From a virus (taxonomy: Duplodnaviria > Caudoviricetes): a stretch of 42,361 bases of DNA. Positions 10,318 to 20,487 of the stretch are shown one piece after another; positions within the stretch are counted from its first letter, which is position 1, and each line of letters begins with the position of its first letter. The notes below the pieces were generated by a model, which saw only the letters and a list, made by a program, of their open reading frames with translations, ran no database searches and had not been told where the DNA came from. Where the stretch lies: IMG/VR virus record IMGVR_UViG_3300020151_001303, positions 1 to 42,361 of that record. One strand, 5' to 3'. The position numbers were made by a program, and so were the translations under genes.

Positions 10318-11703
10318 ATGAGTATAGAAGATACAAATATTGTAGAATCTCCTGGTGTATATTACCCTCAAGATTTTTACCTTAAAACATTAAACTTTTT
10401 AACAGCCAGCGGTCAACGAATAGAACTTCGTCAACTACTTGTTGAATTATCCTATTACGAGGACATTTATAGTTTTGCTGCTTCAGGTTACATTACAATA
10501 CTTGATTCACAAGGTTTTATTGAACTCTTACAATTAACTGGTAATGAATTTATTCAAATTGATTTTGGTAAAGTAAGAGATGGCCGCAATGATAATGAAC
10601 AATTATTTCGTGTTTATAAATCAAGTAGTCGCCAACCAGCTGGCAACATGAATACTGAACTTTATACGTTATATTTTTGTTCTGAAGAATTATTGTTGTC
10701 GGAACAAACAAAAATTAGTAAATCATATAAAGGCACAAAAATTTCTGAAATTGTAAATAACATTTTAAAAGAAGAATTAAAAGTTGATAGTAAAAAAATT
10801 TCACAGGCTGTTATTGAAGAAACAACTGGCGTGTATGACTTTTTAATACCAAGAATGAAACCGTTTGAAGCAATTAGTTGGTTGTCAACTTACGCCAGAC
10901 CACAATTAAATGGTGCTATTGGTGCTGATATGTTATTTTTTGAAACAAAATTAGGATTTAATTTTAGGTCATTACAATCAATGATGAAAGATGATGTATA
11001 TGCGACTTACAAATATCAGGCTAAAAACGTAGATGAAAAAACACAAAATATACAAGAAAAATCTACAACAGTTATAGATTACGAATTAAGTAAACCTTAT
11101 GATATTTTAAATGAAATTACTTCTGGTACATTGGCAAATCAATTGATATCAATAGATCCTTTAACAAGAACATTCAAAAAAACAAATTTTGATTACACAA
11201 AATATAAAAGTCAGGCTAAATCATTAAATCCTGGTGGTGTAACAAATAGTTTAAAGAATCGTTTAGGTAAAACAGAACAACAATCTTATGAGAGTGTAAT
11301 TAAAGTTTCGATTGGCAATTCTAATCAAAAACAAGTTCCTTATATAAAACAAATAGAAGATGGTGTTGCACAAGATATTTTTATTGAAACATATGTTCCA
11401 AATAGAACGGCACAAATTAATTTGGCGAATTATACAGTTTTAAAAGCATCGATACCTGGAGATCCTGGTATTACAGCAGGCCGAACTGTTAATTTTAATT
11501 TATTAACACTCAAACCATCAAATACAAAAAAAGATTTAGATAAGTTTTATTCTGGTAAATATTTGGTGACGGCTGTTCGCCACATTATCAAACCAGCGGG
11601 TGCATACCAAACTATTTTAGAATTGGCCAAAGATAGTACACCAACAACTTATATGAATATTAATAGTGATGATCCTGTTTGGGCAGAAGCGGTAAAAGAA
11701 TAA
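10318..11703 (+). CDS. Baseplate hub protein (gp27-like)
   Basis: Position between gp53 and gp5; YEDI…G…D, P…PF.AI.WL, FFET..GFNF.S, PG…AG, SGKYLVTAVRH. Confidence 0.7.
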   Translation: MSIEDTNIVESPGVYYPQDFYLKTLNFLTASGQRIELRQLLVELSYYEDIYSFAASGYITILDSQGFIELLQLTGNEFIQIDFGKVRDGRNDNEQLFRVYKSSSRQPAGNMNTELYTLYFCSEELLLSEQTKISKSYKGTKISEIVNNILKEELKVDSKKISQAVIEETTGVYDFLIPRMKPFEAISWLSTYARPQLNGAIGADMLFFETKLGFNFRSLQSMMKDDVYATYKYQAKNVDEKTQNIQEKSTTVIDYELSKPYDILNEITSGTLANQLISIDPLTRTFKKTNFDYTKYKSQAKSLNPGGVTNSLKNRLGKTEQQSYESVIKVSIGNSNQKQVPYIKQIEDGVAQDIFIETYVPNRTAQINLANYTVLKASIPGDPGITAGRTVNFNLLTLKPSNTKKDLDKFYSGKYLVTAVRHIIKPAGAYQTILELAKDSTPTTYMNINSDDPVWAEAVKE

Positions 11704-12644
11704 TGGAAAATTTTATTGGGAAAGATGGTTTTAATTGGTGGGTTGGTGTTGTAGAAAGCCGACAAGATCCTTTAAAATTGGGTCGGTGCCAAGTTCGTAT
11801 CTTTGGTTATCACACAGAAAATAAACAATTAATACCCACAGCAGATTTGCCGTGGGCTCCATGCCTTGTTTCGCCAAATTCTCAACAAAGCTTTGCCACA
11901 CCAAAAGAGGGCGACTATGTTATGGGTTTCTTTGCTGATGGTGAATCAAATCAAGCACCAACAATTATGGGAATCTACACAGGCATTAAAGCGTCTGCCG
12001 GTGGCGATAGTGGGTTTCAAGATCCAAGAACACCAGAAGAAATTGCAGCCGCACCTAAACCACCGGATGGTATTGTTGTTGAATCAGTAGGACAACCCAC
12101 CACATCACCATCAGCCAGAGGGGTAGTCGCAAATACTCCTCAAGGTCGAGCGGCCAATAATCGTACACACATTTGTAATGTGGCAGTAGAGATTAATAAA
12201 GATGTTGCCGTGATTAAATCTGAAGTTATGGGTATCGTTAAGTTAATACGAACAACATTAGAAGGCTTGTGGGCCGGCACATCAAGCACACCCATTATTG
12301 AAGAAGCAAAAGAGTTCGTTTTGGCGTTAAAAGCAAAAGTTAAATTAATACAAAAAGAAATAGAACCTATTATTGATGAGATACGAGCATATCAAGAATA
12401 TATACAATATTTACAAGAATTGGTCACATATATACAAAGCCTGCCAGCACAATTACAGGCATTATTAGCAAAATGTTTAGCCGAAGCAACAGTTGAATTA
12501 AAAGCTGCTCAAGAAGTAGTTAGTACATTAACTGATCAAACTGCTGTGTTGAATGAATTAAAAACAGAAGTGCAATCAGCAATTAACATACAAGAAGTGG
12601 TAGCCAGCGGAAATACAGCATCAGTAATACCACAATTATCATAG
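11703..12644 (+). CDS. gp5: gp5 N-terminal OB-fold part plus helical region; likely start MENFIG at 11703
   Basis: WWVGVVE.R.DPLKLGRCQVRIFGYH…LPWA…V.GFF.DG…P.IMG; TAATG overlap with upstream stop. Confidence 0.85.
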   Translation: MENFIGKDGFNWWVGVVESRQDPLKLGRCQVRIFGYHTENKQLIPTADLPWAPCLVSPNSQQSFATPKEGDYVMGFFADGESNQAPTIMGIYTGIKASAGGDSGFQDPRTPEEIAAAPKPPDGIVVESVGQPTTSPSARGVVANTPQGRAANNRTHICNVAVEINKDVAVIKSEVMGIVKLIRTTLEGLWAGTSSTPIIEEAKEFVLALKAKVKLIQKEIEPIIDEIRAYQEYIQYLQELVTYIQSLPAQLQALLAKCLAEATVELKAAQEVVSTLTDQTAVLNELKTEVQSAINIQEVVASGNTASVIPQLS

Positions 12645-12652
12645 GATGAGTA

Positions 12653-13399
12653 ATGACAATAGATAGTTCATGGACAGAACCGGTTGTAGTAGATTCAGAA
12701 AATCCACCTGAATATCCTTATAATAAGGCACAACAGTCTGAATCTGGCCATTTAATTGAAATGGACGACACACCCGATAGAGAGCGTGTGCGTGTTCAGC
12801 ATCGTGCAGGTACATTCTTAGAGATGCAACCTGATGGTGAAGTTCATAAAATTTATGGTAATGGATATGAAATTGTTTTGGGTGATAAAGATGTACAAAT
12901 CACCGGCCAATGTAATATTACTATTGAAGGTGCCTGTGTTGTAACCATCAAGGGTGATAGTTTAATGAAAGTAGAAGGCAATGTCACTCAACAAGTTGAA
13001 GGTAATGTTACACAGACAGTTGATGGCACGACAAAAATAGTTGGCAAAGGCGATGTTGATATTGCTTCGTCTGGTGATATTAGTTTACAGGCAAAAGCAA
13101 TCAATGTCGATGGCCAATTGAATGTGGCGGGTAGTGTGGCTGCGACACAAAGTGTTTCAGCATTAGGTAATCTAAATGCTGGACTACAATGTTTTGCAAC
13201 AGTAGGCATGGTAACGCCAGGTTATATTTCTGCTGGTTCTCCCATACCTTTGTATCCTATTCCTGGTTGGGTATCTGGAATTATGGTCACAGATATAGTA
13301 AGAACAATGGCAATGGACCGAATAATTTATGACATACACAATCATGTTGTTTTGAGTAAAGATTTTGGCGTAACTTCATTACCTACACCTTTAATGTGA
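12653..13399 (+). CDS. gp5: gp5 C-terminal beta-helix spike part with HxH tip
   Basis: YPYN…SESGH..E.DDTP..ER…HR.GT..E; VEGNVTQ repeats; terminal IHNH. Confidence 0.85.
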   Translation: MTIDSSWTEPVVVDSENPPEYPYNKAQQSESGHLIEMDDTPDRERVRVQHRAGTFLEMQPDGEVHKIYGNGYEIVLGDKDVQITGQCNITIEGACVVTIKGDSLMKVEGNVTQQVEGNVTQTVDGTTKIVGKGDVDIASSGDISLQAKAINVDGQLNVAGSVAATQSVSALGNLNAGLQCFATVGMVTPGYISAGSPIPLYPIPGWVSGIMVTDIVRTMAMDRIIYDIHNHVVLSKDFGVTSLPTPLM

Positions 13400-13407
13400 G
13401 AATATAG

Positions 13408-14583
13408 ATGAGTGTTTTTGGTAGACTAAATTATAATTTTGATTCAGCTAAGTTTGGTGCAAACAACGAACTTACTGATGGTCAAAAGCTTTCATTAAAT
13501 TATCCAAGTCCGTTATACACTTGGCAGGCCAGTGATTTGTCCGGAAGTTCTGTAACAAATTATTTTCAGAATCCACATTCTGCTAATTTGACTTTGATGA
13601 CAAGTTATACAAATTATTTGCTCACATATTCAAATACTCAATCAATTACATATAACGTAGCACCAATAGAAGCCAATACTTTGAATGCTTTGGCCAATAA
13701 TCTTTTAATAGAGATATCAAGTTTTACAGACCACACCAATAGAATGTCTGGTGCAACAGAATCAACAAATAAACTTACAACACCAGACTATCAAATCGCC
13801 ATGTCGATTGGCCGGCAAGTTCTACAAATCTGTAATCAAGTTGACGGCGTTCAAAACAATGCACCCATTCTTGGTAATTTTACCAGCTTGGCTATCGTAT
13901 CAGATGTTTCAAATAGTGTCATACAGTTATTAAGTAGTAAAAACACATTAAATGCCAGTTTAAGTATAGTTGGTAGTAATACTTATAGTGATATATCAAG
14001 AGCCTCGATGAATACTATCATTGCTACAGCTCAGACAGCATTTAATTTATTGAATAGTAGGCGAGTAGGTGATACAACATTCTATACAAACTCAATTTCT
14101 CTTATTCAAGATTATAATACCATTCTTCAGTTCTCAAATCTTGGAGTAAATTCATCATATTTGATTAAAGATTTGGGTATTGGTACAACAAAGTTACAAA
14201 ATTATTTACAGTATAGTGTACCATCTGGTTATCCTAATAACATATATTCTGGTGCAAGTACAGGAACAACTACAGGAACAAGTACATCAACATCTGCTGA
14301 AGGATTAACGGTTACTGGTGTAGTTCCTGGAACATATACTATAGCGACTGTTTCAGTAGATGCTTATGGTCGTGTAACTTTTGCAAACAGCGGAACGCCA
14401 CAAGTAGCCAATACTCAAATTATTGGAAATCTTGCAGCAAACACATTAACAACTTCTAATTTCTCTATATCTGAATCTGGTGGAAAATTGGTGTTTAAGT
14501 ATGGTGCAACTGTAATTGCTTCAATGGGTGCAAACGGAATCTTTATCTCTGCTAATAACGTGATTGCTGGCGGAACTCCATAA
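13408..14583 (+). CDS. Virion structural protein with fibre-like C-terminus
   Basis: TGVVPGTY..ATVSVDAYGRVT fibre motif; translationally coupled (TAATG) to the adhesin gene. Confidence 0.55.
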   Translation: MSVFGRLNYNFDSAKFGANNELTDGQKLSLNYPSPLYTWQASDLSGSSVTNYFQNPHSANLTLMTSYTNYLLTYSNTQSITYNVAPIEANTLNALANNLLIEISSFTDHTNRMSGATESTNKLTTPDYQIAMSIGRQVLQICNQVDGVQNNAPILGNFTSLAIVSDVSNSVIQLLSSKNTLNASLSIVGSNTYSDISRASMNTIIATAQTAFNLLNSRRVGDTTFYTNSISLIQDYNTILQFSNLGVNSSYLIKDLGIGTTKLQNYLQYSVPSGYPNNIYSGASTGTTTGTSTSTSAEGLTVTGVVPGTYTIATVSVDAYGRVTFANSGTPQVANTQIIGNLAANTLTTSNFSISESGGKLVFKYGATVIASMGANGIFISANNVIAGGTP

Positions 14584-15176
14584 TGGCATTAAATTCTTCT
14601 GGTCCAATTAGTTTAATTGGTTCCATTACAGGACAATCAATAGCAAAAGAATTAAGTCTTAGTCAAACAGCACAACTTAGTTTGTTTGATTCTTCCGTAA
14701 GAACTTTATTGGGTCGTGCTAGTGGACAAATAAGTTTGTTTGATGGTTACGGAAAATCAAATAGTTTTGTATTTAATCAAACAATTTCTAGTGACACGAC
14801 TAACTATAATCTTAAATCGGCTGCAATTGCAGCTGGTTGGGATCAAACCGTAGCATTGGTAGCTACCATCACAATTAATTCTAGCATTTATGTGTATTCA
14901 ACATCAACTGGTTCTTATGCTTTTGATACGGGATCCAGTTTTTTTGTAGGAAGTACTCTTGCATTAATAAACAATGGGGTTATTTTAGGTAAAGGTGGTG
15001 ATGGAGGACAAGGTGCTTTTTATAATAGTGGAACTGATAGTATAGTAGGAGCTAATCGAAACGGAACTACTGCTGGCCCAGCCTTTATTGCTCGTTATGC
15101 AATCAGCGTTACTAACAATGGCACCATAGGCGGTGGTGGTGGCGGTGGTGGTGGCGGTGGTTTATACATATATTAA
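14583..15176 (+). CDS. gp38-like glycine-rich adhesin, N-terminal half
   Basis: MALNSSGPISL N-terminus; NNGVILGKGGDGGQG and NNGTIGGGGGGGGGGG resemble T-even gp38 glycine-rich motifs; ends abruptly LYIY*. Confidence 0.7.
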   Translation: MALNSSGPISLIGSITGQSIAKELSLSQTAQLSLFDSSVRTLLGRASGQISLFDGYGKSNSFVFNQTISSDTTNYNLKSAAIAAGWDQTVALVATITINSSIYVYSTSTGSYAFDTGSSFFVGSTLALINNGVILGKGGDGGQGAFYNSGTDSIVGANRNGTTAGPAFIARYAISVTNNGTIGGGGGGGGGGGLYIY

Positions 15177-15194
15177 AATTGATAAAAAAATAAA

Positions 15195-16610
15195 ATGAAT
15201 AATTATACAAAATTTGTGACATCAAAAGGATTAGAGTTTTATTATTGTAATGAAACTAACTCTTTGCATGAAGTGGACGGTACGAGAATTGTCATTGGTG
15301 ATCCATCACTACGAGATGATAGTGAGTATTACAAATTAGCAAAAAAAAACTACGCCACTCGTAAAAAACATAATAAACCGGTTGCATTACGTATTTTAAT
15401 GGGGCACGCATGCAATTATAGTTGTACATATTGTATGCAAAAGGATATTGGTAATCCAAATGAACGTCCTAAACGAGAAAGATTGGAAGTGTTTTTTGAT
15501 GCTGTTAATACAAATTTAGATTTAGATAATTTATCTCGTATTGAACTTTGGGGTGGTGAACCATTTTTATATTGGAATGATGTAATGGAGTTAATGACTT
15601 TTTTAGATAAAGAAGATCGTCATTTTTATATTTCTACAAATGGAAGCACTTTGCATCCAAAACATGCTGAATTTTTTAGCACTTTAAAATCTGACATTCT
15701 TATTAATATATCCCATGACGCAATGCATCAACAAGAGCTCCGTGGAGATGATATTTTTCATCGAGCTCGTGTAATAGAAACATTAAAAATGTTTGATAAA
15801 TTAGCTAATGTTGAATATGGTTTTACTTGTTCTGTAACTAATACAAACTATGATTTATTTGAAATTAACAACTACTTTAGAAATAAAATTATGGAGCATA
15901 GTTTATTAACTTTTCAACTTGCTTTTTCTTTGGGACGAACATATGCTGAAAGTTCAGATAACCGTACAGAATCTTTGCCGTGTACAATGATTGAAGGGGG
16001 GGCCAATACTGATAAAGGAAATAGTTATAACCATGTTATACATGGAGAAAATTTAGAAAAATTTAGAATAATTTTAAAAAATTTCTTAGAAGCTCACCAC
16101 AAACAATTCACTGAAAGAGGTTTAGATGAAAATGGTGAACCTCTTGTGTTTCAGGCTACCGCTGATGAACTTTCTTTGTTAAAAACGGATATATATGAAA
16201 GTCCTTTAGGTTATAGTGTAACCCAATATGCTCGCAAAACTATTATTGGAGAGCCTATATTGGAAAATACAAATTGTGGTGCTGATATGGCTGACATATT
16301 ATCAATGGATTTGGATGGTAACATTAGAACTTGTCCTCATACAGATGAATCTCACATATATGGTCACCTTAATAATATTAAAGGAATTCGTATCATTAGT
16401 CTAGATATGAAACGTAAAGAATCTCATTGCGCCTCTTGTCATAATATTAAAATTTGCAGAAGTAGTTGTCCAATTAAATTACCAGATGAAGTTTTTATGA
16501 CCAATTGCCGTGTAGAAAAAATTTGGTATGGAGAAATACAGAAAGCAGCTTTTAGATTATTGTTTAATGATACAGTAGAAATGGTAGAAACAGGTATAGA
16601 TTTACACTAG
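15195..16610 (+). CDS. Radical SAM enzyme with SPASM-like Cys-rich C-terminal domain
   Basis: CNYSCTYC (CxxxCxxC), WGGEP, STNG, ISHD; C-terminal NCG…G.I.TCPH…CASC…ICRSSCP…C. Confidence 0.93.
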   Translation: MNNYTKFVTSKGLEFYYCNETNSLHEVDGTRIVIGDPSLRDDSEYYKLAKKNYATRKKHNKPVALRILMGHACNYSCTYCMQKDIGNPNERPKRERLEVFFDAVNTNLDLDNLSRIELWGGEPFLYWNDVMELMTFLDKEDRHFYISTNGSTLHPKHAEFFSTLKSDILINISHDAMHQQELRGDDIFHRARVIETLKMFDKLANVEYGFTCSVTNTNYDLFEINNYFRNKIMEHSLLTFQLAFSLGRTYAESSDNRTESLPCTMIEGGANTDKGNSYNHVIHGENLEKFRIILKNFLEAHHKQFTERGLDENGEPLVFQATADELSLLKTDIYESPLGYSVTQYARKTIIGEPILENTNCGADMADILSMDLDGNIRTCPHTDESHIYGHLNNIKGIRIISLDMKRKESHCASCHNIKICRSSCPIKLPDEVFMTNCRVEKIWYGEIQKAAFRLLFNDTVEMVETGIDLH

Positions 16611-16616
16611 TGTAAA
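16601..16616. repeat. Perfect 16-bp palindrome over the radical SAM stop codon
   Basis: TTTACACTAGTGTAAA. Confidence 0.8.
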
Positions 16617-16653
16617 CCATTCAAATAACCCACAGCCAATAAAATATAAAAAA

Positions 16654-17058
16654 ATGAAATTTAAACCTTATATACAATCAAAAAGACTAATAGCATGTGG
16701 AGCGTGTGCATTCTCTGGAGGCGGCGGTGGCGGAGGTGGCCGAGGCCAAGGTACTGGCGGACCACCTGGTTCAGGTGCTTTTAGTGGAAGTAGTGGTGCT
16801 GCTGGAAATCCAGGAACTTTGGGATCTTTTGGTAATGGTGGTATTTCGGGTGCCGGCGGGCCCAACGATAACCCAAATAATAGACAATATGGTGGTGCCG
16901 GAGGAAGCGCAGGTTCTTCTGGCGCTACAGGAGGAGCCGGAGACGCATGGAACGGGCAAACTGGTGTTGGTAGCGGAGGCGCAGGTGGCACAGCAGTTGC
17001 TGGAAATTCTTTTGTTACATGGTTAGCGTTTGGTACAAGAAGTGGAGCGATAACTTGA
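16654..17058 (+). CDS. gp38-like glycine-rich adhesin, C-terminal half with short leader and CGAC
   Basis: MKFKPYIQSKRLIACGACAFS then GGGGGGGGRG…GGAGG.AV.G…TW…GT..G, resembling the gp38 C-terminus. Confidence 0.75.
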   Translation: MKFKPYIQSKRLIACGACAFSGGGGGGGGRGQGTGGPPGSGAFSGSSGAAGNPGTLGSFGNGGISGAGGPNDNPNNRQYGGAGGSAGSSGATGGAGDAWNGQTGVGSGGAGGTAVAGNSFVTWLAFGTRSGAIT

Positions 17059-17087
17059 ACAATATCAATGGACCATACAATGACTCA

Positions 17088-17549
17088 ATGAGTTATAAGA
17101 TCGTAAAATTTTGGCCAGAAACCGGTCAAATTGAAATTGAATGTTTAGGATACAATCAACGGATTTCTATAGATTTGCCCATTGACAATGGAAAATACCC
17201 AGAAGGCGATGATTTAGATGTTTACATTAGAGGGTTCGTGCCTACTTGGTTAGTGGACCGAAATAAATTGATAAACGCCGGCATATCTAATATGAAGGAA
17301 ATTCAAAAATTAGTTAGCAATTCTGCAGAAAATGAATCTGAGTATCAAAAACGTAATTTTAATTTACAACAAGTATATCAAAAACGTAAATATTTATTGC
17401 AAGAAACAGATTGGACTCAATTATCTGATGCTCCTCTCACTGCAACGGAGAAAAAAATGTGGAAAAAATATAGGCAAGAACTCCGAGATATTACCAAACA
17501 ATCATTAGACTCAAATATGGTATGGCCAACTAGGCCTAGCAATTATTAA
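17088..17549 (+). CDS. Tail fibre assembly chaperone (Phage_tail_APC-like C-domain); likely start MSYKI at 17088
   Basis: R..LL.ETDWTQL.DAPL…W..YRQ.LRDIT.Q…WP..P. Confidence 0.8.
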   Translation: MSYKIVKFWPETGQIEIECLGYNQRISIDLPIDNGKYPEGDDLDVYIRGFVPTWLVDRNKLINAGISNMKEIQKLVSNSAENESEYQKRNFNLQQVYQKRKYLLQETDWTQLSDAPLTATEKKMWKKYRQELRDITKQSLDSNMVWPTRPSNY

Positions 17550-17557
17550 TTATACAC

Positions 17558-17776
17558 ATGGCATATAAAATAATTGAACATAACGATGAACAACGAACAA
17601 TTCATGTTGACGTTGAAGGCACATCACGCATTTTACTTTATCCAAACGATATTAATTTATTTGAAGAAATGACAACAGCAGATTTAGATTTGTGGATTGA
17701 GGGTTTTATAAACGTTAATGTTGCAACAGAAGAAACAGAAACACCTGTGCCACAACAAAACCAATGGATATATTAG
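17558..17776 (+). CDS. Small protein similar to the N-terminal domain of the preceding chaperone
   Basis: MAYKII…DLDLWIEGF versus MSYKIV…DLDVYIRGF. Confidence 0.65.
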   Translation: MAYKIIEHNDEQRTIHVDVEGTSRILLYPNDINLFEEMTTADLDLWIEGFINVNVATEETETPVPQQNQWIY

Positions 17777-17777
17777 T

Positions 17778-19028
17778 ATGAAAATATTTCTACCTAATAG
17801 TATAACACAAAGAACCAACTTGGTTAGTAAGTTGAATGGTTTTGGTATACAAACAACAAGCAATTACAATGATTCAGAATGTACGGCATATTTGACTATA
17901 TTAGAACCGGATGCTTTGTTGTTTGATAACATAGAAGATATTCAAACATATGTAGAAGTATATGGTGGCCACACTCCGTCTTTTTTAAGTTCAAAAATTA
18001 AATCAGTAAATGAAGATTTAGCTGACAAATGGTTGTTACATAAGGCTCTTGCCGATAATCAGTTACCCACTATCCCTACCATTTTACCTACTTCTATAGA
18101 AGAAATACAAAACTTTTTTAATGAACATTCTGCAGTATTTTGCAAGCCTAGAGTGGGGTCCGCAGCAAAACATCCTGTTTTACATAGTATAGGTTTAGGC
18201 ATTGAAATAAACGAAAGTGTTAGTGATGATATTAAGAACTATATTAAAACAATTCCAATTCCAACTTCTGATGTATACTATAAAAAATTTACATCTTATG
18301 CTGATTTTATTGCCAATGTCAATATTGAAAATTTTTTAGAAATACAACAAAACAATAAGTCGTTAAGAATGCATCAATGTATACTACAGCAAGCCATGGA
18401 TTTTAATTTTATCAAATATTACACTGGATGGGTTAATGGAAATGGAGATATTTACATAGAGCCAAAATCAGATAGTTTTCAGGATAGTTTTATACCTGAT
18501 CCTATCAACAATCGCCGAATGGTTACTACAGAAGCATTATATAATATTGTAAATACTCCATCTTTTATGAGTGATTATGGTAGGTTAACAGCTTTCAACG
18601 ACCCTAATAATATTTTTGCCTATCTTAATAATGTGTTTAAAATAAACAATATTAAAAATACTCCTTTTTCCGTTCAAGTTATACAATGCAACAATCAATT
18701 AATTATTATGGACTACACTTCTCGAGCAGAAAAAATGTTATCAAATGCATGGTCCAGTAATAATCTTATTGTGAATAGACTAAACTATATGCATGATGTG
18801 ACCTTAGATGTAATAGACGATACCAATTGTATGTGTTATTTTGTATGCCACATGCCTAAGGGGGGAATTAATTCGAATATTAAAAGTTTGATTGAAAAAT
18901 ATAACATAGAAATTAATGTTCCTGTTAAATTACATAGTATTATAGTAGGACTGCGTGCATATGGTTCAACTACACATGAAATACAAAACAACATCAAAGA
19001 ATTTTTGACCGAGTTGAAAAAATTATGA
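17778..19028 (+). CDS. Divergent ATP-grasp-fold protein; likely start MKIFL at 17778
   Basis: ADKW…L….LPTIPT, VFCKPRVGS, ILQQAM, VQVI…IIMDYTSR occur in ATP-grasp order. Confidence 0.6.
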   Translation: MKIFLPNSITQRTNLVSKLNGFGIQTTSNYNDSECTAYLTILEPDALLFDNIEDIQTYVEVYGGHTPSFLSSKIKSVNEDLADKWLLHKALADNQLPTIPTILPTSIEEIQNFFNEHSAVFCKPRVGSAAKHPVLHSIGLGIEINESVSDDIKNYIKTIPIPTSDVYYKKFTSYADFIANVNIENFLEIQQNNKSLRMHQCILQQAMDFNFIKYYTGWVNGNGDIYIEPKSDSFQDSFIPDPINNRRMVTTEALYNIVNTPSFMSDYGRLTAFNDPNNIFAYLNNVFKINNIKNTPFSVQVIQCNNQLIIMDYTSRAEKMLSNAWSSNNLIVNRLNYMHDVTLDVIDDTNCMCYFVCHMPKGGINSNIKSLIEKYNIEINVPVKLHSIIVGLRAYGSTTHEIQNNIKEFLTELKKL

Positions 19029-19864
19029 GATTGATCTATAAAACATTGCTAGGAAGTTTATTTTTTGTTTGTAATTTGGCAGTTTCTCAAACTGTTTACA
19101 CTGCCGGTGAGCAACAAATAAACACAATAAAAGATATATTATTTCCCAATTTGGTAATAGAAAAAGTACCCGGCGCACAAGGAGCCTTGGCTTGGCAAAA
19201 AGTACTACAAAATAAAAATTCAATTGTAATAACAACCACAAGTTCCACTTACATAGCTCCTCTTGAAAGTAATTATGTTCCAGGGATTGAAGATCCAACA
19301 AAAGAAACTGAACTATTAGCTATATTAACACGAAGTCAACAAGCTATTTTTGTTAGTGTTAAATCTCCAATTAATACAATTACAGACGTTAAATCTTACG
19401 ATAAAACTTGGTTTGTGGGAGGCATAGGAGAAAAAGGTATTTGTAGTCTTTTAATGTCTAAACTTGCAGAAAAATATAAAATTAATTATACCTATGTGCC
19501 GTATAAACTATCTCAACAAATTAGTAATGATATGTTAGGTGGCCATATTGATGCGCATTGTACGACTATGGGAGCATTAAATGTTGGAGATGCATACATT
19601 AAAAACAATACTGGGAAATTAATATATACATTTGATAAAGATTTTGATGCGTTTGCTCGACTTTTTATTTACGCAAATAAAGAGTTGCCAACAGAAACCA
19701 AAGATCAAATTATAAAATCGGTTACTAGAAAATTGACCGAACAAGAACAGTTGTTTGTAAAAAATAACAATTTAACGCTCGATATACATACTAAGGCGGA
19801 AGCAGTAAAAATCTTTAACTACGAAAGAATATTTTGGAATAATCTTAAAAAGGAAAAAAAATGA
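19025..19864 (+). CDS. Bug/TctC-like periplasmic solute-binding protein
   Basis: Signal peptide; VIEKVPGAQGALA, SPINTITD, VPYK…DMLGGHIDA motifs. Confidence 0.75.
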   Translation: MRLIYKTLLGSLFFVCNLAVSQTVYTAGEQQINTIKDILFPNLVIEKVPGAQGALAWQKVLQNKNSIVITTTSSTYIAPLESNYVPGIEDPTKETELLAILTRSQQAIFVSVKSPINTITDVKSYDKTWFVGGIGEKGICSLLMSKLAEKYKINYTYVPYKLSQQISNDMLGGHIDAHCTTMGALNVGDAYIKNNTGKLIYTFDKDFDAFARLFIYANKELPTETKDQIIKSVTRKLTEQEQLFVKNNNLTLDIHTKAEAVKIFNYERIFWNNLKKEKK

Positions 19865-20487
19865 AACATTTTATGATAGTTGTTTTGAGTTTGTTTAGTA
19901 TGTCCGTTTTGGCACAAACAAAACCTGATGTGAATAAAGAATTTGGCTTAAGATCAGTAACTGTTGGCCTTGAAAAAGGATACACCAAAACAGTAAGTGG
20001 TACAGATGTGAACAAAATGGGAGAATCCACTACCTTATCGGTAGGAGCAATTTATAATAATAATATGACATTTGATTGGAGAGCTATGACGAGCCAACAA
20101 AATTCTTATAGTGAAAAATTTGGTAGTCCCACATCATACCAAGAAATTGGACCAGGATACAGATATTCCCTAGGTAAAGACCTGCCAACAGCGTCAATAA
20201 AAGTGTATCTTCAACAATATGAAAAACCAACAAAAAGATATCTAGGATATGCAGTAAACCCTTCTATTAGTGGTAAGATATTGGGAAGTGACTTTGGTTA
20301 CCTTATTGGTTATAAGAGATTTGATTCTTTTGAAGATAGCCTCTTGAACACAGCAAGACATACCCAAAGAATTTATACTATATCTTATAGCATCAACAAA
20401 AACCACAGCGTTTATGTAAAGAAACAGGACCAAAGGGGTTACACTCAATATGATGGCCTTTATGTCGGTTATAGACACACTTTTTAA
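19861..20487 (+). CDS. Putative outer-membrane beta-barrel protein
   Basis: Signal peptide (VLA|Q), alternating aromatic strands, C-terminal YVGYRHTF beta-signal. Confidence 0.7.
   Translation: MKHFMIVVLSLFSMSVLAQTKPDVNKEFGLRSVTVGLEKGYTKTVSGTDVNKMGESTTLSVGAIYNNNMTFDWRAMTSQQNSYSEKFGSPTSYQEIGPGYRYSLGKDLPTASIKVYLQQYEKPTKRYLGYAVNPSISGKILGSDFGYLIGYKRFDSFEDSLLNTARHTQRIYTISYSINKNHSVYVKKQDQRGYTQYDGLYVGYRHTF

Follow-up and report, generated by a model that had tools for sequence, protein, structure and literature searches.

What is the gene for a radical S-adenosylmethionine (rSAM) enzyme doing in the middle of a phage adhesin? The question is raised by a 42,361-bp record of a Caudoviricetes virus, IMGVR_UViG_3300020151_001303, which was analysed whole and is called the window below (completeness estimate 25%). 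Three consecutive open reading frames (ORFs) lie on its plus strand. The original prediction took the outer two for the halves of one gp38-like adhesin (the N-half and C-half), broken in a loop between two polyglycine tracts, and the middle one for an intact rSAM gene with a SPASM domain; the three ORFs and the short gaps between them, of 18 nt (15177-15194) and 43 nt (16611-16653), are present in the ORF list as it described. We find by profile alignment that the outer ORFs are two parts of one gp38-like adhesin, and that the split, a cysteine motif at the start of the C-half and linkage to a single rSAM clade are conserved together while the gene order around them changes. By slightly more than an even chance, we favor rSAM-dependent modification of this Cys motif in a two-chain gp38 adhesin. 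The features that carry the argument are as follows.

14583-15176, plus strand: adhesin N-half, 197 residues, with a fibre-attachment N-terminus, a β-helix region and the first polyglycine tract
15129-15161, plus strand: eleven GGN codons, polyglycine tract 1, followed by a non-conserved four-residue tail and then three in-frame stops before the rSAM start
15195-16610, plus strand: radical SAM/SPASM enzyme, 471 residues, assigned from Pfam and PHROG matches, Cys motifs and an AlphaFold2 (AF2) model
16654-17058, plus strand: adhesin C-half, 134 residues, with the remaining polyglycine-II (PGII) repeats and a conserved C-terminus
16654-16710, plus strand: C-half residues 1-19, in which a short basic stretch (…KRLIA) precedes Cys15 and Cys18 (CGAC), the predicted rSAM target
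16717-16740, plus strand: polyglycine tract 2 (eight glycines), three residues after the Cys motif

One adhesin in two genes

The two outer ORFs each have their own start and stop codon and are separated by 1477 nt. The N-half ends in NNGTI, eleven glycines and LYIY, while the C-half opens with MKFKPYIQSKRLIACGACAFS, followed by eight glycines and RG, and closes with AVAGNSFVTWLAFGTRSGAIT. The N-half passes the Pfam GP38 profile (PF05268) at 27.1 bits against a cut-off of 25, its residues 90-193 covering positions 25-117 of the 218 in the profile, and it also matches PHROG tail-fibre and host-specificity families. Neither Pfam nor PHROG yields a match for the C-half by itself. Unsplit homologues of about 300 residues are common: with one of them, L041, as the query (relatives are referred to here by such L numbers), 1520 proteins reached E ≤ 1e-5 among the candidates scored, and all of the 120 homologues listed carry PF05268. 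Aligned with hhalign to a profile of unsplit proteins, the N-halves occupy columns 1-186 (probability 100, E 2e-55) and residues 21-134 of the C-half occupy columns 197-307 (probability 99.4, E 1e-21), so that their coverage is complementary and without overlap. The break falls between polyglycine tracts 1 and 2, at a position that forms a variable loop of about 10-25 residues in the unsplit proteins.

The AF2 model of L041, a natural unsplit homologue, has a predicted local distance difference test score (pLDDT) of 87.2 and a predicted template modeling score (pTM) of 0.78. Its three matches in the PDB at E ≤ 0.001 are to gp38 only, from phages PP01 (9V85; chain 9V85_C, 3.9e-14) and S16 (6F45; chain 6F45_D, 5.7e-11). 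The fold, a β-helix followed by a polyglycine-II sandwich, was judged on this model, and the two chains of the window were placed on it by profile mapping. The Pfam match, the profile alignments and the fold of the unsplit homologue support the assignment of the flanking ORFs to one gp38-like adhesin, and the alignment to unsplit homologues likewise supports a break within the loop between two polyglycine tracts. A further suggestion, that the enzyme joins Cys to Tyr, finds no comparative support because the LYIY tail of the N-half is not conserved; the N-half tails vary among relatives. In a 92%-identical relative (L004:3449-4987) the N-half is 512 residues long, with about 315 inserted residues separating the attachment N-terminus from the β-helix region, an arrangement that marks the N-half as modular in itself.

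A split of this kind could simply be non-functional: a pseudogene, an assembly error, an intron or intein that carries the rSAM gene, or a break healed by recoding. In favor of such an account, GGN repeats that encode polyglycine are prone to slippage and interrupt short-read contigs, yet we give it almost no credence. The ratio of nonsynonymous to synonymous substitution rates (dN/dS), computed against relatives, falls at 0.12-0.34 in the N-half, 0.09-0.15 in the rSAM gene, 0.28-0.36 in the C-half and 0.07-0.39 in the chaperone gene that follows, values that point to purifying selection on all parts of the locus. Both halves, with dN/dS of 0.12-0.36, are conserved in many contigs, the C-half keeps its own conserved N-terminus and start, and the split itself is conserved in at least 12 distinct lineages. 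The order N-half, rSAM, C-half is seen again in independent contigs with rSAM identities of 88-99%; contigs assembled from public data of several runs and studies read across both junctions, and one 5523-nt contig from a different study spans the N-half, rSAM, C-half and chaperone genes. The halves are thus neither decayed nor joined by assembly artefacts, two of the dangers that the original prediction had named. Short-read contigs end only at the GGN repeat (15129-15161), because this repeat is common to many genes. None of the runs listed with the locus is an RNA run. Joints that skip about 1560 nt (15151-15162 to 16713-16723) were considered as deletion variants and rejected; their sides measure only 20-27 nt and lie inside the two GGN tracts, and they are cross-matches from other polyglycine genes.

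Recoding across the break is ruled out by the three in-frame stops between the N-half and the rSAM gene, together with stops in the other frames within 25 codons. A search of positions 13000-18000 against Rfam found no family at E ≤ 1 except a chance match to a long non-coding RNA (E 0.9), and therefore no intron. An intron-borne rSAM gene is also at odds with the separate stop and start of the halves and with the absence of any insert from the break in most relatives. Nor does the locus hold an intein-sized sequence for an intein or split intein: N-half tails run to 0-6 residues and C-half leaders to 3-14.

The middle gene and the cysteines of the C-half

The product of the middle ORF passes Pfam Radical_SAM (51 bits) and Fer4_12 and matches phrog_1802 at E 1.9e-37. 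Seven-cysteine SPASM domains follow the pattern CX9-15GX4C … CX2CX5CX3C … C. The protein contains a CX3CX2C motif (C73, C77 and C80) and seven SPASM cysteines (C361, C380, C412, C415, C421, C425 and C438), all of which are invariant in 21 of 21 homologues. Its AF2 model (pLDDT 80.5, pTM 0.84) most closely resembles two Cys-directed maturases of proteins or peptides, anSME (4K38, E 1.3e-9) and the sactisynthase CteB (5WGG, E 1.4e-9), followed by SkfB, SuiB and ChlB, and its best NCBIfam matches are also maturases (PapB, WgkB, DynA, anSME, SCIFF and QhpD). Two insertions, at residues ~253-276 and ~310-326, are specific to its clade. A sequence search of the PDB with the rSAM profile recovered the MoaA/viperin core only, and a pattern scan of prokaryote genomes returned no relatives. 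Judged from its motifs and its model, the middle gene encodes a SPASM radical SAM enzyme that resembles Cys maturases.

In the hhalign alignment, nothing in the unsplit profile corresponds to the first 19 residues of the C-half. These residues contain Cys15 and Cys18, invariant in 13 of 13 aligned C-halves, with (K/R)RLI(A/G) before the pair and polyglycine tract 2 beginning 2-5 residues after it. More distant C-halves carry the motifs ACVCAC (L080), GACACAC at residues 2-8 (L146) and SACECC (L038); those of L146 and L038 have almost no leader, and the Cys motif starts at residue 4. A search of a 5.8-billion-protein set with a C-half profile, in which the candidates were saturated by polyglycine words, gave at least 26 matches, a figure that is no measure of abundance. 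A similar motif, CxC or CxxC at the equivalent position, is present in nine of the ten C-half-like proteins inspected from this search and is missing from P0141. The candidate substrate for the linked enzyme is a 134-residue structural protein in which the Cys pair is invariant and the (K/R)RLI(A/G) peptide conserved.

Two other roles for these cysteines were considered and rejected. Lipoprotein signal peptides combine a positive n-region, a hydrophobic h-region and a lipobox ending in Cys. The sequence L-I-A-C is lipobox-like, but just 14 mostly polar residues precede it, and in L146 and L038 the motif sits at residue 4. Substrates of anSME carry the motif C/S-x-P/A-x-R; the C-half reads C-G-A-C-A-(F/C/S/N), with no Arg at +4.

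Linkage through changing gene orders

To place the window among its relatives, we surveyed the best 80 of 184 relatives found with an N-half profile, which gave 79 loci with 8-kb flanks and 66 distinct focal proteins. The survey script scored 11 split adhesins with an rSAM gene and 3 without, against 0 and 44 for unsplit adhesins and 0 and 8 for other or cut loci. L100 and L101, both scored as split without rSAM, were reclassified by hand, the real adhesin in each being an unsplit 343-residue ORF. After this correction, an rSAM gene lies within 8 kb of 11 of 12 split adhesins and of 0 of 46 unsplit ones; these are not independent events because the linkage in the clade has one origin, and the Fisher p of 1.6e-9 that the script gave ignores shared ancestry. 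L011, a close relative with near-identical baseplate and fibre genes, has an unsplit 339-residue adhesin in the equivalent slot, where no rSAM, chaperone or accessory genes are found. The contrast that the original prediction looked for among relatives, a split adhesin with rSAM versus an unsplit one without, is therefore seen both in the survey and in L011.

Viewed from the enzyme, the association is equally close. All 14 distinct full-length rSAMs of the clade adjoin N-halves, C-halves or both, and they form one clade in a quick tree (Shimodaira-Hasegawa-like approximate likelihood ratio test, 97). The L080 enzyme, the basal member of the adhesin-linked clade (FastTree support 1.0, 25 chosen rows), adjoins the halves as well, and three truncated rSAM copies (L033, L050 and L071) also stand beside adhesin halves. 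The arrangements, with N and C for the adhesin halves and R for rSAM, are as follows.

N, R, C, chaperone: the window and L004; L006 and L050 are cut after R
N, R, desaturase, C, chaperone: L048
N, desaturase, R, C, chaperone: L012; L033 is cut
R, N, C, chaperone: L010/L049 and L080
R, another ORF, N, C, chaperone: L009
N, C, desaturase, R, chaperone: L018, which has a second N-C pair
N, C, chaperone, x, R: L020/L021/L052, L022, L024 and L025; L023 and L071 are cut

There are thus at least seven gene orders of N, C and rSAM. In most lineages, including the basal L080, the N- and C-halves are adjacent, 6-32 nt apart, and the rSAM gene lies upstream or downstream; adjacency is therefore probably ancestral, and the rSAM trees suggest that an rSAM gene within the break is derived. 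The placement of the enzyme inside the break in the window is incidental and probably a derived gene order. The idea that the enzyme is the cause or hallmark of the break does not survive this comparison, since most relatives have adjacent halves with the rSAM gene outside. What is conserved together while gene order changes is the split, the C-half Cys motif and the linkage to the rSAM clade. The L018 locus holds two split N-C pairs (L018:3964-5096 and 10359-11240) and one rSAM gene in the examined 11-kb stretch of a 367-kb contig, which suggests that one rSAM may serve several adhesins.

The closest relatives of the adhesin-linked enzymes form a sister clade (39-48% identity to the enzyme of the window, 22 rows) that never occurs with adhesin halves. 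The sister-clade enzyme is the last rSAM of a multi-rSAM cluster of large phages (L026:1932-8038, also L027-L032 and L053-L069) that is also found in Ralstonia phage RP12 (ORF076-080; L001:1015-6970). The cluster includes rSAM genes of 585, ~372 and ~440 residues (three by Pfam or rSAM profile), a DUF3050 protein, a 353-residue ORF that has a CX3CX2C-like motif and no Pfam or NCBIfam match, and a precursor-like ORF of 63-70 residues. In this last ORF a leader-like, conserved portion is followed by a C-terminal core, CECQCACACGRGTV or NCQCNCNRGSI (in a shorter form, the Cys-alternating CECQCACACGRG or NCQCNCNRGS). Of 27 sister or outlying loci, 22 contain the ORF; among the five that do not, three are without the DNA upstream. 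The core (CECQCACAC…) is similar to the motif of the C-half in its alternating Cys followed by Gly and Arg-Gly: C-x-C-x-C and then (G/S)RG in the cluster, C-G-A-C-A-(C) … G-tract-RG in the C-half. The cluster differs from the window in its leader-plus-core peptide, its two further rSAM genes, the 353-residue ORF and the DUF3050 protein, and in having no adhesin halves. Full-text searches found no paper on this RP12-type multi-rSAM cluster.

A distant group of SPASM rSAMs, from L146, Achromobacter phage JWF, Ralstonia phage RSP15, L042 and L043 (support 1.0), is also located in tail-fibre modules. The order in L146 is rSAM, a 616-residue fibre protein, a 222-residue N-half and a 118-residue C-half that starts MGACACAC. 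L151 and L152 carry the following modules, in which a fibre gene is followed by a distant SPASM rSAM (484 residues) and a protein of 294/300 residues whose N-terminus is of the gp38 type, whose C-terminus is hydrophobic and which carries 14-15 Cys arranged as NC/CNC repeats.

L151:7360-10918, minus strand: fibre, rSAM and Cys-rich protein module
L152:7558-9951, minus strand: fibre, rSAM and Cys-rich protein module

L152 is on a contig of a close relative of the window's phage, and therefore the unsampled part of that phage may carry such a module.

A proposed maturation step and its alternatives

The N-half supplies the fibre-attachment domain, the β-helix and the first polyglycine strand, and the C-half the rest of the polyglycine sandwich. 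We propose that the two separately translated chains, together with a Tfa-like chaperone, would build one gp38-like tip, in which the severed ends, the Cys motif among them, would come together where loop 1 sits in unsplit adhesins. Loop 1 joins polyglycine strand 1, as it leaves the β-helix, to strand 2, and should therefore lie at the receptor-facing, distal end. In the gp38 proteins of PP01 and S16, receptor loops are presented from the PGII sandwich, according to the available part of the published description (PMC12892980). The enzyme would abstract a hydrogen atom and join a Cys sulfur to carbon, probably as a thioether cross-link; the acceptor might lie within the C-half or in the glycine-rich end of the N-half, in which case the cut would be re-stapled. 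We are less confident of thioether chemistry in particular, or of stapling between the chains, than of Cys modification as such, the chemistry (thioether, formylglycine or other) and the acceptor being guesses. More tentative again, and short of an even chance in our estimation, is the full scenario: an enzyme of the type that matures ribosomally synthesized and post-translationally modified peptides (RiPPs), recruited from the multi-rSAM cluster, would form thioether links from CxxC(xC) at the receptor-facing end, possibly stapling the chains via a glycine Cα, and the same device would recur in the second, distant lineage with the Cys/Asn-rich tip proteins.

Several observations weigh against maturation of the adhesin, and most of them could instead indicate that the rSAM gene, often together with a desaturase-like gene, is an accessory or metabolic island gene acting on a small molecule, lipid or host protein, its linkage reflecting hitch-hiking, the two chains associating non-covalently and the CxxC forming a disulfide or metal site. 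The linkage in the clade of the window has a single origin in the rSAM tree. A membrane protein gene of the FA_desaturase family overlaps the rSAM gene by 4 nt in L012, L018 and L033 and directly abuts it in L048, and this pairing is the main hint of a role or pathway for the enzyme outside the adhesin. (The family assignment, PF00487, is at 98.6 bits for L012; the genes lie at L012:5559-6416, L018:5138-5998, L033:5087-5998, L048:7429-8295 and L009:8482-9339.) The island contains further host-like accessory genes, among them TctC-like, outer-membrane-protein (OMP)-like, ATP-grasp-like and S-adenosylmethionine decarboxylase genes. Some Cys occurs in the first inter-polyglycine stretch of 7 of 50 unsplit adhesins without rSAM, a count from a simple regular expression in which some of the "loops" are mis-parsed long stretches, and in the first loop of 7 of 42 database homologues; a loop Cys is therefore possible without this enzyme. 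The split pair of L038 has no rSAM gene within 8 kb, its contig containing only an rSAM of the distant type ~20 kb away. None of the 42 matched NCBIfam families reaches its cut-off (PapB scores 49.2 bits against 340 and QhpD 29 against 453), and no RRE domain was recognized at the locus. We nevertheless consider the accessory-gene account unlikely. Seven or more rearrangements have not broken the linkage, nor has divergence that is saturated at synonymous sites, and neither the window nor several further loci with an rSAM gene and a split adhesin contain the desaturase-like gene. The sister clade is found in a RiPP-like cluster whose Cys core is similar, Cys-rich fibre-tip proteins accompany a second, distant rSAM lineage as well, and the top fold and family matches of the enzyme are peptide or protein maturases.

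The enzyme might also mature the adhesin or fibre at some other site, such as a polyglycine Cα, the N-half tail, the neighboring 391-residue fibre protein or the chaperone, or it might produce formylglycine from Cys and not a thioether. In line with this, anSME is the best fold match, polyglycine tracts lie on both sides of the cut, and rSAM enzymes that act as glycyl-radical activases abstract a glycine Cα hydrogen. The Cys-bearing N-terminus is, however, the only element specific to the split forms, the anSME motif is not matched by C-G-A-C-A, which lacks the Arg, and the N-half tails are not conserved, so that we rate maturation at another site, or to formylglycine, as improbable.

The genes next to the adhesin and the enzyme are as follows.

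13408-14583, plus strand: 391-residue fibre protein, directly 5′ of the N-half, its stop overlapping the N-half start
17019-17549, plus strand: tail-fibre assembly chaperone (Tfa-like), matching Pfam Phage_tail_APC (PF16778, 57.9 bits) and PHROG tail fibre assembly families
17718-19028, plus strand: ATP-grasp-like protein, with Pfam ATPgrasp_YheCD at 24.8 bits, under the 26.8 cut-off

The 391-residue fibre protein has no match in Pfam. It is kept beside the adhesin in relatives, stands before the unsplit adhesin in L011 and is likely the docking partner of the adhesin. The Tfa-like chaperone gene lies 3′ of the C-half in every relative with a complete locus. The ATP-grasp-like gene probably begins near position 17778 and is found again at some loci with a split adhesin, two copies flanking the L038 pair; its L080 homologue passes Pfam at 27.9 bits, and a sequence search against the PDB returned nothing. 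Its product could act as an accessory or second maturation enzyme or as a ligase. Downstream, a homologue of TctC-family periplasmic binding proteins (19025-19864; PF03401, 36.3 bits) and a 208-residue protein that is OMP-like by eye and has no family match (19861-20487) both have N-termini that resemble signal peptides by eye. The two genes lie within the baseplate and tail-fibre module, are kept in L004, L010 and L048, and look like host-derived accessory genes. In L009, an S-adenosylmethionine decarboxylase homologue (L009:8136-8492; PF02675, 70.8 bits) shares the island with the rSAM gene and the split adhesin. T4-like baseplate genes (gp27-like, gp5 as two ORFs, gp25-like and gp6-like) surround the locus. 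The gp5-like hub is split too, into an OB-fold N-part (11679-12644) and a β-helix C-part (12653-13399), with no lysozyme domain detected; L011 has the identical split. The phage comes from freshwater metagenomes, and a blastn search of the region against isolated phages found no match.

Among known systems, the maturases anSME (4K38), CteB (5WGG), SkfB, PapB and QhpD share the CX3CX2C motif and seven-Cys SPASM domain of the enzyme in the window. Unlike theirs, its presumed substrate would be a virion structural protein with an N-terminal peptide of 3-14 residues and no long leader. QhpD makes thioethers inside a protein subunit, not in a small peptide, and by analogy may be the closest functional counterpart. 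On the adhesin side, gp38 of the T2/S16/PP01 type (PF05268; 6F45, 9V85) resembles the adhesin of the window in its attachment region, β-helix and polyglycine-II sandwich with variable loops, as far as the available part of its description goes (PMC12892980). The window departs from that type in that its adhesin is encoded by two genes, cut in the first variable loop with the halves 1.5 kb apart, the N-terminus of its second chain is extended by a Cys-bearing stretch, the locus is linked to a SPASM rSAM gene and a Tfa-type chaperone follows. Pam3 gp24/gp25 (7YPX) combines a glycine-rich receptor-binding domain with a downstream Tfa-like chaperone, as in the window; in the available part of that report, gp24 is trimeric and made as one chain, which includes a TNF-like domain, and no rSAM appears (PMC9608196). 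The model of our unsplit relative matches 7YPX weakly (E 2.9).

Tips of the gp38 type decide which bacteria a phage infects and have so far been treated as simple, unmodified single chains. In our full-text literature search, no paper connected radical SAM enzymes with gp38 or with the maturation of tail fibres; in the available part of one phage paper in which radical SAM, tail fiber and thioether all occur, the rSAM is treated as an antibiotic-synthesis gene (PMC12801897). The locus encodes a two-gene variant of the gp38 adhesin for which a RiPP-like maturation step is plausible, an idea that is directly testable because the substrate is small and defined (134 residues, two Cys), a single enzyme is involved and unsplit relatives provide natural controls. 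If true, this would be the first case in which a phage structural or receptor-binding protein is matured by an enzyme in RiPP-like fashion, and the first enzyme-matured phage adhesin, bringing new chemistry to host recognition. It would also explain tail-module rSAM genes annotated only as "radical SAM domain protein", such as those of Achromobacter phage JWF and Ralstonia phage RSP15, and, should the second rSAM lineage follow the same logic, adhesins cross-linked by enzymes would form a general class of host-recognition devices in phages that has been overlooked.

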